Positions 35,801 through 52,588 of a stretch of DNA of 64,000 bases are shown piece after piece; position 1 is the first letter of the stretch, and every line of letters begins with the position of its first letter. The notes below the pieces were generated by a model. The model did no database searches, was not told the DNA's origin, and saw only the letters and a program-made list of their open reading frames with translations. The DNA comes from Saccostrea echinata (lineage: Eukaryota). The DNA lies in the NCBI RefSeq assembly GCF_033153115.1, contig NW_026889801.1, positions 13,950,001 through 14,014,000 of the forward strand, given 5' to 3'. Made by a program: the position numbers and the translations under genes.

Positions 35801-36778
35801 GAGGCCTCCATCACCCCGTTTTACCTTATCGCACGGGAGGCAAGTTATTGTTTCCATTATGCCGAACCTGTGCGGAACGACAGGACTCTACCTCTAAACA
35901 TCGATGTCAACACGCAGACCAGGAACGCAGTCTTACGGGTACCTGGGTGACTACAGAATTACATAAAGCCCTGGACATGGGTTATACCTTAGAGCGGATT
36001 TACGAAGTTTGGCATTTTTCACAAAGCAGTCGAGATTTATTCAGATCTTACATCGATACCTTCTTAAAGATCAAACAGGAAGCTTCTGGATTCCCACCTG
36101 ATTGTCAGACGGAGGAACAGAAACTAGATTACATTCGTAAAGTCTCAGACAGAGAAGGGATCAGGATGGACCTGTTAAGTATAGAAAAAAATCCGGTGCT
36201 AAGAACGATAGCCAAACTCTTTTTAAATTGCTTGTGGGGAAAATTCGCTCAACGCCTGTTATTACCTAAAACTCGATACTTGACCGAAGAAGAGGAACTA
36301 CAGCAACTCTTACAAGATTCGACCATTGACATCAAAGGGATAGAACTCTTAGAAAATAAAGAGCAGGCCGAATCGGACATGATGCTGGTCAATTATCAAG
36401 AGAAACAGGAATTTGTGGAAGAGTGTCCCTTCGGAAACGTGGTACTGGCCTGTTTCACTACCGCCCATGCCTGATTACACCTCTACGAGACTTTACAACC
36501 TTTGGGAGATCGGGTCCTTTATTTCGACACGGACAAAATCCATGTGTAAAGTCAAAGGATTGACTCTCAATTATCGGGCCTCTCAGATCGTGTCACCAGA
36601 GACTTTAGAAAAAATGCTCCAGAAAGAAATTGACGAAATCCAAGTCTCGTATCCCTACAAAATACAGAGGACTCGTCAACATGAAGTCAAGACAATACCT
36701 TTAGAAAAACAATATAGAATTGTCTATGATAAGAGACAATTGATGGAAGATTATAACACTTTACCTTATGGTTATTAA
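32881..36778 (+). pseudogene. polB: Protein-primed family B DNA polymerase with vOTU-like domain, Cys-rich region and VSR-like nuclease insertion; inactivated near the C-terminus
   Basis: Exo motifs YFDFEC, AHNFKGYDG, YCISDV; Pol motifs YVDVCSLYP, KLFLNCLWGKF, YFDTD. In-frame TGA at 36472-36474 (TAHA*LHLYE), then a frame change directly after YFDTD into KSMCKVKGLTLN...TLPYGY. Confidence 0.95.
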
Positions 36779-36893
36779 AAAAAAAAAAAACAAAACTGTA
36801 TTTTAAATGTGTTGTCATTTTATGGGGAAACCCCCCCCCCAAAAAAAAATGAGGGGTTATAAAAAGGGGGGAAAATAATATAACACTTCAGTC

Positions 36894-37436
36894 ATGGCTG
36901 GTGTTGATAAGGAGCCAGACTACCTTCCTGTTTACCCTAAATATGCTCTGCTCTTAAAGAGAGAAGCTACCTTTGATGATCGATGGCCCGATTCTTTAAA
37001 AGGATTAATACCCGACCTAGCCAAAGCCGGATTTTATTACAGAGGAGTGAGTGATAAGACCATCTGTTTTCATTGTGGTATGACTTTAAACCTCTGGGAA
37101 CCTACAGACGATCCTTATGTAGAACATGCTTATTGGAACCCTAATTGTCCCTACATCAATACCTATGAAGGACGTGAGTGGGTGATGAATGTATTCATTA
37201 ACCATTTACTCCGGGCGGGATACAAACCTTCACCTGAAATCAAACCTCTACTAGACCAAACCTCTACAGAGATCCAGGCCACAGGAAAATGTCACATTTG
37301 TTTAGAGAGAGAATTACAAATGGCTTTACTCCCTTGCGGACACGTATGTTGCTGTTCATTATGTGCTCCCACCTTCCGGTATTGCCCCATCTGTCGAGCC
37401 GATGTGAAGAGAACCCAGCGTATATTTCTGTGTTGA
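36894..37436 (+). CDS. iap: Inhibitor-of-apoptosis protein (single BIR + C-terminal RING)
   Basis: LAKAGFYY..D.TICFHC...WEPTDDPYVEH..WNPNCPY (BIR); CHIC...LLPCGHVCCCSLC....CPICR (RING). Confidence 0.95.
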   Translation: MAGVDKEPDYLPVYPKYALLLKREATFDDRWPDSLKGLIPDLAKAGFYYRGVSDKTICFHCGMTLNLWEPTDDPYVEHAYWNPNCPYINTYEGREWVMNVFINHLLRAGYKPSPEIKPLLDQTSTEIQATGKCHICLERELQMALLPCGHVCCCSLCAPTFRYCPICRADVKRTQRIFLC

Positions 37437-37484
37437 CTATGAATAAAAAGGATTGAAACCCTATTTTTCTCTTCATTTGTCATC

Positions 37485-38126
37485 ATGCAACCTGAGGAGA
37501 CACTCCCGTCTTTTCAATTGAAACACGAATTTACCATGGTGGTAGCAGGACCTTCTAAATCGGGGAAAACGGAATTTGTCAAGAAATTGGTGGAAAATTT
37601 ACATTGGATTACCCCCATGCCACAAAAAATTGTCTGGTGTTATCGGGAATGGCAACCTGCTTACACTACTTTAACAGATCGGGTCTCCTTCATTCTAAAT
37701 ATTCCAGAAGACGATGAGAAATTAGTGGCCAATATAACTATTCCTCACTTACTCATTTTTGACGACATGATGGGAGGAAAAGCCATCGAATCGATCGTGG
37801 ATTGGTTTACCCGTAAAGCGCATCATCGGAATACCAGTGTGATTTACATCACTCAGAACTTATTTGATCGAGCACCACAGCATCGCACCATTAGTTTGAA
37901 TGCTCATTATTTAGTGTTGTTTAAAAATCCCAGAGACAAATCTCAAATCAGTGTCTTGAGTCGACAGTTAGCCTTACCTCATTTGATGTCGGCCTATCAA
38001 GAAGACACCAGTGTTCCTCACGGGTATCTCCTGGTGGACTTGAATCCACAGACCCCAGACGAATACAGATTGAGAAGTCGATTGTTTGAATTGTTAACTA
38101 TACACATGCCACAAGAGTATAAATAA
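37485..38126 (+). CDS. FtsK/A32-like genome packaging ATPase
   Basis: Walker A GPSKSGKT, Walker B LLIFDD, HHRNTSVIYITQNLF, RTISLNAHY..LFKNPRD. Confidence 0.95.
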   Translation: MQPEETLPSFQLKHEFTMVVAGPSKSGKTEFVKKLVENLHWITPMPQKIVWCYREWQPAYTTLTDRVSFILNIPEDDEKLVANITIPHLLIFDDMMGGKAIESIVDWFTRKAHHRNTSVIYITQNLFDRAPQHRTISLNAHYLVLFKNPRDKSQISVLSRQLALPHLMSAYQEDTSVPHGYLLVDLNPQTPDEYRLRSRLFELLTIHMPQEYK

Positions 38127-38171
38127 AAATGTATCAACATTACACTTGTCATTCATCACTATGCAGTCGTC

Positions 38172-50980: not shown

Positions 50981-51025
50981 GACGACTGCATAATGATGAA
51001 TGACAAGTGTAATGTTGATACATTT

Positions 51026-51667
51026 TTATTTATACTCTTGTGGCATGTGTATAGTTAACAATTCAAACAATCGACTTCTCAATCTGTATTCGTCTGGGGT
51101 CTGTGGATTCAAGTCCACCAGGAGATACCCGTGAGGAACACTGGTGGCTTCTTGATAGGCCGACATCAAATGAGGTAAGGCTAACTGTCGACTCAAGACA
51201 CTGATTTGAGATTTGTCTCTGGGATTTTTAAACAACACTAAATAATGAGCATTCAAACTAATGGTGCGATGCTGTGGTGCTCTATCAAATAAGTTCTGAG
51301 TGATGTAAATCACACTGGTATTCCGATGATGCGCTTTACGGGTAAACCAATCCACGATCGATTCGATGGCTTTTCCTCCCATCATGTCGTCAAAAATGAG
51401 TAAGTGAGGAATAGTTATATTGGCCACTAATTTCTCATCGTCTTCTGGAATATTTAGAATGAAGGAGACCCGATCTGTTAAAGTAGTGTAAGCAGGTTGC
51501 CATTCCCGATAACACCAGACAATTTTTTGTGGCATGGGGGTAATCCAATGTAAATTTTCCACCAATTTCTTGACAAATTCCGTTTTCCCCGATTTAGAAG
51601 GTCCTGCTACCACCATGGTAAATTCGTGTTTCAATTGAAAAGACGGGAGTGTCTCCTCAGGTTGCAT
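51026..51667 (-). CDS. Second copy of the packaging ATPase
   Basis: Identical to 37485-38126 except QEATS vs QEDTS. Confidence 0.95.
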   Translation of the reverse strand: MQPEETLPSFQLKHEFTMVVAGPSKSGKTEFVKKLVENLHWITPMPQKIVWCYREWQPAYTTLTDRVSFILNIPEDDEKLVANITIPHLLIFDDMMGGKAIESIVDWFTRKAHHRNTSVIYITQNLFDRAPQHRTISLNAHYLVLFKNPRDKSQISVLSRQLALPHLMSAYQEATSVPHGYLLVDLNPQTPDEYRLRSRLFELLTIHMPQEYK

Positions 51668-51715
51668 GATGACAAATGAAGAGAAAAATAGGGTTTCAAT
51701 CCTTTTTATTCATAG

Positions 51716-52258
51716 TCAACACAGAAATATACGCTGGGTTCTCTTCACATCGGCTCGACAGATGGGGCAATACCGGAAGGTGGGAGCACATAATGAACAG
51801 CAACATACGTGTCCGCAAGGGAGTAAAGCCATTTGTAATTCTCTCTCTAAACAAATGTGACATTTTCCTGTGGCCTGGATCTCTGTAGAGGTTTGGTCTA
51901 GTAGAGGTTTGATTTCAGGTGAAGGTTTGTATCCCGCCCGGAGTAAATGGTTAATGAATACATTCATCACCCACTCACGTCCTTCATAGGTATTGATGTA
52001 GGGACAATTAGGGTTCCAATAAGCATGTTCTACATAAGGATCGTCTGTAGGTTCCCAGAGGTTTAAAGTCATACCACAATGAAAACAGATGGTCTTATCA
52101 CTCACTCCTCTGTAATAAAATCCGGCTTTGGCTAGGTCGGGTATTAATCCTTTTAAAGAATCGGGCCATCGATCATCAAAGGTAGCTTCTCTCTTTAAGA
52201 GCAGAGCATATTTAGGGTAAACAGGAAGGTAGTCTGGCTCCTTATCAACACCAGCCAT
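51716..52258 (-). CDS. iap: Second copy of IAP (BIR + RING)
   Basis: Protein identical to the 36894-37436 product. Confidence 0.95.
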   Translation of the reverse strand: MAGVDKEPDYLPVYPKYALLLKREATFDDRWPDSLKGLIPDLAKAGFYYRGVSDKTICFHCGMTLNLWEPTDDPYVEHAYWNPNCPYINTYEGREWVMNVFINHLLRAGYKPSPEIKPLLDQTSTEIQATGKCHICLERELQMALLPCGHVCCCSLCAPTFRYCPICRADVKRTQRIFLC

Positions 52259-52370
52259 GACTGAAGTGTTATATTATTTTCCCCCCTTTTTATAACCCCT
52301 CATTTTTTTGGGGGGGTTTTCCCCATAAAATGACAACACATTTAAAATACAGTTTTTTTTTTTTGTTTTT

Positions 52371-52588
52371 CAGGCACTTTAAGGGCCTAAAAGTGCACTC
52401 CGTTGACCCCCCATCCCCCCAGGGCCCAAAAAGTGCACTGAGTTGACCCCGCCATCCCCCCATGGCCCCAAAAGTGCACTCCGTTGATCCCCCCAGGGCC
52501 CCAAAAGTGCACTCCGTTGACCCCCCCATCCCCCCAGGGCCCAAAAGTTCACTCAGTTGACCCGCCTAGCTAGACGCCTTATACTACT
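52371..52588 (-). repeat. Right TIR with ~5 tandem ~40-bp G/C-rich subterminal units
   Basis: AAAAGTGCACT(C/G)(C/A)GTTGACCCCCCATCCCCCCAGGGCCC repeated; the left end has only ~1.5 units. Confidence 0.9.

Follow-up and report, generated by a model that had tools for sequence, protein, structure and literature searches.

A 2.3-kb inverted duplication in place of a native right-arm segment in a decaying Polinton copy of Saccostrea echinata

Introduction

Replication of Polintons (Mavericks) outside the chromosome is inferred from gene content, not observed. Replication of adenovirus and phi29 proceeds by strand displacement, which yields a displaced single strand; rearrangements of the FoSTeS/MMBIR class combine a deletion with an inverted copy of nearby DNA, with microhomology at the joins. 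Animal Polintons, or adintoviruses, are characterized by a protein-primed DNA polymerase B (pPolB), a retroviral-type (rve) integrase, an A32-type packaging ATPase, a double-jelly-roll capsid protein, AGTAGT ends and a 6-bp target-site duplication; their descriptions give a length of 12.7-24.6 kb for intact vertebrate copies, report that most Polinton copies are degraded, and already record IAP homologues from adintoviruses (PMC8097293, PMC8502044). Defective viral genomes of the copy-back and snap-back types arise where a polymerase leaves its template, carry an inverted repeat and lack part of the genome; those of the copy-back type, reported chiefly from negative-sense RNA viruses, have one end copied back on itself (PMC13506859). 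A literature search of titles and abstract openings, with subscription papers mostly outside its reach, returned no case of an internal inverted duplication in a Polinton.

Results

The window, a 64,000-nucleotide stretch of the Saccostrea echinata assembly, contains a Polinton copy with AGTAGT ends, matching the published (AGT)2 motif (PMC8097293), and flanked by an intact 6-bp target-site duplication:

32589..52588, + strand: Polinton/Maverick copy, decayed and rearranged, 20,000 bp
32583..32588: left 6-bp target-site duplication, flanking the left terminus
52589..52594: right 6-bp target-site duplication, same letters as the left one
32589..32669, + strand: left terminal inverted repeat, pairing with 52507-52588 (82 columns, 93.9%)
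52371..52588, - strand: right terminus with a tandem array of ~40-bp units, family-native, its length in the range of sister copies

This assembly contains at least 150 candidate members of the family, and all 27 sister copies with both ends located have matching 6-bp target-site duplications. The copy carries every feature listed above for animal Polintons and lies within the vertebrate length range, but it differs from them in having an internal 2.3-kb inverted repeat and in lacking the right accessory segment of its family. Its genes are:

32881..36778, + strand: protein-primed DNA polymerase B gene, broken (PF03175, E 2.4e-57)
36894..37436, + strand: IAP gene (BIR and RING), 180 aa, left arm, preceded by TATA-like and TCAGT-like motifs
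37485..38126, + strand: A32-type packaging ATPase, 213 aa, left arm (PF04665, E 5e-6, above cut-off)
38172..39090, + strand: left-arm version of a gene of ~305 aa in sisters, family start codon lost, frameshifted (pieces 38301-38765 and 38725-39090)
40369..41421, + strand: retroviral-type integrase, 350 aa (PF00665, E 6e-11)
44483-45484: candidate minor capsid ORF, 333 aa, by position only
46481..47821, + strand: major capsid protein of double-jelly-roll type, 446 aa (feature score of 0.98 in the Atlas, whose best cluster has PF21738 on 24%)
47896..48399, + strand: putative cysteine protease, candidate for the adenain-like protease of Polintons, 167 aa (weak match to ASFV S273R, E 0.074)

The major capsid ORF had no direct Pfam match, the putative protease none in Pfam, and the 333-aa ORF none in Pfam or NCBIfam. 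An intact, autonomous Maverick has all core ORFs uninterrupted; here polymerase, integrase and capsid are broken. The polymerase has 1197 aa against 1345-1350 aa in sisters, with a premature stop codon at 36472-36474 and a gap of ~145 bp at 36535, the integrase 350 aa against 363 aa in 23/39 sisters with a match, and the major capsid protein 446 aa against 473 aa in 21/39. An earlier note on this DNA had placed the pPolB stop just before the duplicated block; this is correct for the stop of the polymerase region (36776-36778), but the ORF of this copy ends before it. The "Zn-finger" ORF of that note (38725-39090) has no Pfam match at E 0.01 and is the tail of the ~305-aa sister gene.

The block following the polymerase is present twice, as the earlier note had recognized:

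36778..39081, + strand: block in its original place, forming the left arm of the inverted repeat, with native surroundings
39082..50072, + strand: 11-kb core separating the arms, oriented natively with respect to the left arm
49511..49575: (TA)n run of 30 perfect units, 0.5 kb ahead of the inner join
50073..50073: inner join, where native right arm and block end share 1 base of microhomology, unique in the assembly
50073..52370, - strand: inverted block copy, in place of a native segment of ~4.1 kb
51716-52258, - strand: right-arm IAP gene
51026-51667, - strand: right-arm ATPase gene
50034-50980, - strand: right-arm frameshifted gene
52353..52370: outer join, T-run common to the block start (reversed) and the native T-run that precedes the terminal array

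Self-BLAST aligned 36778-39081 with 52370-50073 over 2304 columns at 99.3% identity (E 0), bearing out the repeat first reported as 36777-39081 and 50073-52370. The block does begin in an A-run at the stop codon 36776-36778 that closes the polymerase region, and its inverted copy directly meets the right terminal array at 52370/52371. Both native adjacencies of the block are on the left arm, so that the assembled state is unflipped, and both native termini are retained. IAP (BIR E 6e-21, RING E 7e-12) and the A32-type ATPase are present in both arms; the IAP coding DNA differs at 0/543 bases, and the TATA-like upstream region is likewise duplicated. The third block gene is broken in both arms by frameshifts at different places.

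Comparison with sister copies identified what the right arm replaced. The right halves of 38/40 sisters align up to 50072/50073, and none continues into the block; among 40 examined, a single native sequence follows the join anchor in all 29 that match it, and all 32 that match the array anchor have a T-run in front of the array. The same native continuation at 50072 occurs in related elements from two public sequencing runs. Where this copy has 2,297 bp, sisters carry a native segment (median 4,088 bp, measured in 24/34), followed by the same terminal array. Thus the inverted copy replaces a 4.1-kb native right-arm segment and does not form a second head: the proposed pPolB-less head was right as to its IAP and ATPase genes and wrong as to its nature. 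This replacement also explains why the copy, although 20,000 bp long as stated, is not "still" of full length but short of the family median of 21,886 bp (27/34 pairs, both ends found). The array had been thought expanded and the length typical of packageable Polintons; since sisters carry the native segment and then the same array, the array has not grown and the 20.0-kb figure is incidental. The array measures 218 bp here against 105-268 bp in sisters, being longer in 6/29 measured (34 pairs examined), and these sister array and length measurements rule out both an expanded array and a length held at a packaging limit.

The rearrangement is confined to this copy. Across the 923-Mb assembly the inner join is present a single time, and 0/32 sisters have an internal inverted duplication; this count leaves aside 2/34 paired copies with large insertions, and two matches of 160-165 bp, a flank palindrome and a (TA)n self-match. 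The left flank was also used to look for another allele or a duplicated insertion site; among 40 scored of 187 candidates its sole match was itself. No other insertion thus shares the duplication, and within this assembly the description that applies is a one-off rearrangement in a decaying copy, as the earlier note had foreseen for a join unique to its locus. Structural lesions are frequent in the family, 5/27 sisters being more than 500 bp off the median length.

The arms differ by 11 substitutions, while the nearest of 38 sisters is 19-20 away (L074 and L080, in which the block is broken, were left out of this alignment), and they form a clade with support 100/94. Four variants, at 37696, 38163, 38252 and 38594-38596, are common to both arms and found in 0/38 sisters; a genome-wide search met two of them nowhere but in these arms, and a third was confined to the arms among 40 scored of 152 candidates. 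Each arm also has changes of its own that are missing from all 38 sisters, including the separate frameshifts, and arm-specific markers lie at 37869 and 38005. Because the arms are mutually closest and have four variants in common that 38 sisters lack, these comparisons show the template to have been, to judge by variants, the element's own block, and hence intramolecular. A template from another family copy was rejected, as the arms agree at non-homopolymer family polymorphisms and form a clade.

The age of the event is less distinct. Private substitutions elsewhere in the copy amount to 2.84/kb (23 in 8,102 sites), predicting 5.9 per arm; the left arm has 3 changes of its own and the right arm 3 events, plus 3 shared. 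(Sites near homopolymers were left out of the date analyses, and alignments under 90.5% identity out of the copy's private-change analysis.) These counts are as if the duplication had happened half-way through the copy's history, with p 0.09-0.15 for the count test by itself. With the polymerase set aside, the copy's private coding changes number 14 nonsynonymous and 3 synonymous, in keeping with neutral decay (expected 0.79) and unlike the 128:115 of family polymorphism (p 0.02); the polymerase contains a patch of private changes, 8 synonymous to 1, that looks inherited. Stems of independent sister insertions (0.0018-0.0043) are as long as that of the arms (0.002). The nonsynonymous share of singleton variants in young sisters is 0.72, against 0.53-0.60 for shared variants, which implies that about a quarter of singletons were inherited from unsampled lineages. 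At this estimated inherited share the likelihood ratio of "after" versus "before" integration is 0.8-1.3; it is 0.4-0.5 at a share of 0.4 and 10-17 at 0.1. Of the arm-shared variants 0/4 are disruptive, whereas a lost start and two frameshifts are among the changes specific to one arm. The arm counts and the private coding changes outside the polymerase weakly suggest a late date; the sister stems, the singleton share, the polymerase patch and the non-disruptive shared variants speak against it. Late gene conversion between the arms is still a candidate source of the shared variants; because shared and arm-specific variants interleave within 4-25 bp, the conversion would have to span the entire arm, which amounts to a late duplication.

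Discussion

We suggest, with confidence little better than even, that the 4.1-kb segment was replaced through what were likely two template switches in one event, probably in the host chromosome after integration. A nascent strand at 50073 would have moved to the opposite strand 11 kb back, on 1 base of homology, and copied the block backwards as far as its A-run, which would then have re-annealed to the T-run ahead of the right terminal array; the same path could have been taken in the reverse direction. The event would belong to fork-stalling/template-switching or microhomology-mediated break repair, and its product would be without function, decaying since then as the rest of the copy. Template switching, which the earlier note had also proposed, is upheld by two joins with microhomology and an intramolecular template. 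As in FoSTeS/MMBIR complex deletions with an inverted templated insertion, there are two joins, with 1 base and a homopolymer of microhomology, and a nearby cis template within 15 kb. Unlike those cases, the rearrangement is wholly inside a virus-like element, and the element's own polymerase is therefore an alternative author.

Both switches may accordingly have taken place in a free replicating element, its protein-primed polymerase jumping to the displaced strand and back, and the resulting defective genome, with both ends, integrating once; we regard this as a serious possibility, though we would not put it at even chances. By analogy with adenovirus and phi29, strand displacement would leave a single strand whose polarity fits an inverted copy; the termini and target-site duplication are intact; and the return switch, 218 bp from the terminus, used the last of the T-runs of the native segment (5-9 in 10 sisters). 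The four shared variants would then belong to an unsampled lineage, which accords with their non-disruptive nature, with the existence of lineage stems of such length and with a likelihood ratio close to 1 when the inherited share is set to the estimate for the family. Several points count against this: two of the shared variants are confined to the two arms across the assembly, the copy's private changes in coding DNA, polymerase excepted, have a neutral look, each arm has gathered only about half the changes of its own that the full age of the copy would predict, and the join was found at no other insertion.

Protein-primed replication may have played a part, though not through the copy-back genome that the earlier note had inferred. 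Here too a polymerase would have left its template, an inverted repeat was formed and part of the genome is missing; in copy-back genomes, however, one end is copied back over the other, whereas both native ends are kept here, the repeat lies inside the element and its formation takes two switches (compare PMC13506859). Strict copy-back is excluded because both native ends are kept, and propagation with a helper finds no counterpart in a join seen once in this one assembly. If the origin was before integration, the copy would be a direct trace of Polinton strand-displacement replication and of defective-genome integration in an animal, a rare footprint of replication outside the chromosome, for which claim one locus is too little; if it was a chromosomal accident in a dead copy, it has little importance, as one of several private structural lesions in a large family.

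It is improbable that a fold-back or chimeric read placed the inverted block over the native right arm in assembly. A family of at least 150 candidate copies is a setting prone to misassembly, but a chimeric read would not create arm-private changes and separate frameshifts, both joins have microhomology, the T-run form of the outer join occurs in sisters, and the target-site duplications match. Public reads are neutral on the correctness of the assembly: the run search turned up five runs (shares at most 0.06) and no reads from this individual, and none bridges a join, nor do the contigs over 48000-53500 and 49900-50300 (four runs each).

The least credible reading, which we consider very improbable, is the propagating or invertible architecture of the earlier note, in which the arms flip the 11-kb core or a second IAP-ATPase head is kept by selection: long, near-identical inverted arms such as these (2.3 kb, 99.3%) are able to recombine, and the IAP coding DNA and its duplicated upstream region are preserved, but the join is unique, 0/32 sisters have such a duplication, the assembled state is unflipped, polymerase, integrase and capsid are broken, as is the third block gene in both arms, and with each arm changing at about 1.5 per kb, a run of 543 unaltered bases is no surprise. 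Doubled IAP dosage is likewise trivial, because 30/40 sisters examined already retain the full-length, 180-aa IAP ORF.

The (TA)n run was considered as a trigger of the event: its 30 units exceed the sister median of 10 (range 5-44, 38/40 loci), yet it remains only a lead because 7/38 sisters have more units.

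Structure of the element and its family

The rearranged Polinton/Maverick copy in the window is exactly 20,000 bp long (32589-52588), with AGTAGT ends and a 6-bp target-site duplication identical on both sides. It encodes pPolB (PF03175), an IAP with BIR and RING domains, an A32-type ATPase, an rve integrase and a double-jelly-roll capsid protein, together with a probable protease (weak match). These are the Maverick features listed in PMC8097293, and PMC8502044 already records IAP homologues in adintoviruses.

We compared this copy with other members of its family in the same assembly (sisters). 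The 923-Mb genome contains 179 candidate places for the 2.3-kb block of IAP, ATPase and a third gene, and the best 40 of these were scored; sister samples comprised 40 right halves, 40 left halves and 32 middles. Thirty-four sisters were paired across both halves and both ends were located in 27 of these, all 27 with matching 6-bp duplications.

An inverted block replaces a native segment

Self-comparison revealed a single long inverted pair in the window, 36778-39081 against 52370-50073 (2304 columns, 99.3%), so the inverted 2.3-kb duplication that the earlier note described inside the element is present in the assembly. In nearly all sister right halves (38/40) the alignment with the window ends at 50072/50073, and none continues into the block; past this point sisters have a native segment (median 4,088 bp, 24 measured). 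A T-run follows it, and after that comes the terminal array also seen in the window. The inverted block thus stands in place of 4.1 kb of native segment. The right TIR array, previously called expanded, is of ordinary size (218 bp, against 105-268 bp in 29 sisters), and the 20.0-kb length, previously taken as typical of packageable elements, is an arithmetic product of the loss and not a conserved length: the sister median is 21,886 bp (n=27). Five of the 27 lie more than 500 bp off this median, and other private structural lesions are thus common in the family.

Related elements in two public sequencing runs also keep the native continuation at 50072, indicating that the window state is derived. 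The native adjacencies 36777/36778 and 39081/39082 are both on the left arm, and the assembled orientation is the unflipped state. In runs X2 and X3, related-element contigs (mostly 85-95% alike) extend across the element, and their summed depth is very high.

The lost segment contains four ORFs, located here on the sister piece L015:

L015:5040-5771, minus strand, RING-like protein (PF13920, E 0.0036, below cut-off)
L015:6748-7248, minus strand, PP1-binding-like protein of 166-169 aa (weak PF10488 match, E 2.6e-5, 24.5 bits, cut-off 26.1)
L015:6888-7301, minus strand, 137-aa ORF (this length in 30/39) that overlaps the PP1-binding ORF in a different frame
L015:7673-8212, plus strand, zinc-knuckle protein (PF00098, E 2e-12)

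PF10488, the PP1 catalytic-subunit-binding region, is the family of GADD34, ICP34.5 and DP71L. All but one of the 40 sister right halves carry a homologue of the PF10488-like ORF, and 38 of the ORFs retain a KxVxF...DRxRF motif. Our literature search found nothing pairing Polintons with GADD34, and the matches listed in it mention neither ICP34.5 nor DP71L; the supplementary gene maps of PMC8502044 may list such a gene. In the window itself, a 166-aa ORF (48571-49071) has a faint Macro-domain match (E 0.2), and 88 bases from the beginning of this ORF recur in the native right segment.

A probable single event templated by the element itself

Both joins are private to this locus, among the best 40 of 247 candidates for the inner join (50073) and the best 40 of 334 for the outer (T-run 52353-52370). 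A 24-base pattern that bridges the inner join has a single match in the entire assembly, at zero and at two mismatches. Searched over their length, 32 sisters show no internal inverted match of at least 150 bp, a flank palindrome and the (TA)n run set aside; neither check revealed another insertion sharing the duplication. Microhomology at the inner join is one base, common to the native arm and the block end. At the outer join the reversed A-run of the block is fused with the T-run, which precedes the array in 32/32 matched sisters.

The arms differ by 11 substitutions, homopolymer sites included, against 19-20 for the nearest of 38 sisters, and form one clade (support 100/94). They have in common three substitutions and an insertion of 3 bases, all absent from the 38 sisters; two of the shared variants occur genome-wide only in these arms, and a third only in these arms among the best 40 of 152. 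The inverted copy was therefore templated by the element's own block.

The element is decayed. Its polymerase ORF reaches 1197 aa, where the commonest sister classes have 1345-1350 aa; it stops early and, compared with 38/40 sisters, lacks ~145 bp at 36535. Its integrase is 350 rather than 363 aa and its capsid protein 446 rather than 473 aa, and each arm has its own independent frameshift in the block's third gene (~305 aa in sisters). The IAP gene is intact, and its two copies are identical, TATA-like upstream region included; the doubled dosage previously proposed would nonetheless add a negligible amount, because 30/40 sisters already have the 180-aa IAP ORF. An artefact from a chimeric read is unlikely, as each arm has separate private changes, although the public runs searched yielded no read bridging the joins. 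The rearrangement looks like a real, single, intramolecular event in a dead Polinton copy.

Mechanism and timing

We suggest that a nascent strand switched at 50073 to the opposite strand, 11 kb back, used the block there as template, and rejoined the native sequence through annealing of homopolymers ahead of the terminal array, or that the whole path ran in reverse. Such switching is compatible with host fork-stalling or break repair, and also with strand-displacement synthesis by the element's own polymerase. The event acts like a polymerase template switch. However, a copy-back genome, as defined in PMC13506859, has one end copied back onto itself; the window copy keeps both native ends and so falls outside the class proposed for it in the earlier note. 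It comes closest to deletions that carry an inverted templated insertion, and the matches listed in our literature search include no published Polinton case.

A late, chromosomal date is narrowly favoured. Outside the block the copy has 2.84 private substitutions per kb, predicting 5.9 per arm, but each arm has ~3 of its own plus 3 common to both. Beyond the polymerase, its private coding changes comprise 14 nonsynonymous and 3 synonymous ones, whereas family polymorphisms divide 128:115 (p 0.02). Rearrangement before integration is somewhat less probable. Against the late date stand a substitution-count test that reaches only p 0.09-0.15, a likelihood ratio ranging from 0.4 to 17 across plausible values, and an estimate that roughly one in four singleton variants of young sisters was inherited (nonsynonymous share 0.72, against 0.53-0.60 for shared variants and 0.79 expected under neutral decay); also, none of the variants common to both arms is disruptive, some stems shared by sister insertions are as long as that of the arms, and the return switch used the T-run closest to the terminus, of 5-9 T-runs. 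That the copy is a fossil defective genome, made in Polinton replication, is a tentative reading, below the chromosomal date in probability.

Five synonymous private changes cluster in the polymerase gene (35604-35982), a patch likely acquired by recombination from a lineage that was not sampled.

Other repeats

The first 20 bases of both TIRs nearly always agree within one copy, as expected if ends are homogenised during replication, with several variants between copies (L041-L076 with L001-L038). At least three same-strand family copies lie within 90 kb at G000:C36:402580-492769 (sister pieces L001, L018, L019, L041, L080); in two of them, part of the block forms an internal direct repeat. 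A 211-bp direct repeat at 270-bp spacing (window 45832-46312), in a repetitive gene, is present in some sisters and absent from others. Host repeats outside the element (window 10924-12051, 57871-58373, 59963-61176 and 2362-2710/9411-9759) comprise a 144-bp tandem array with a dispersed relative, a ~1.1-kb degenerate palindrome and a 349-bp inverted pair (99%).
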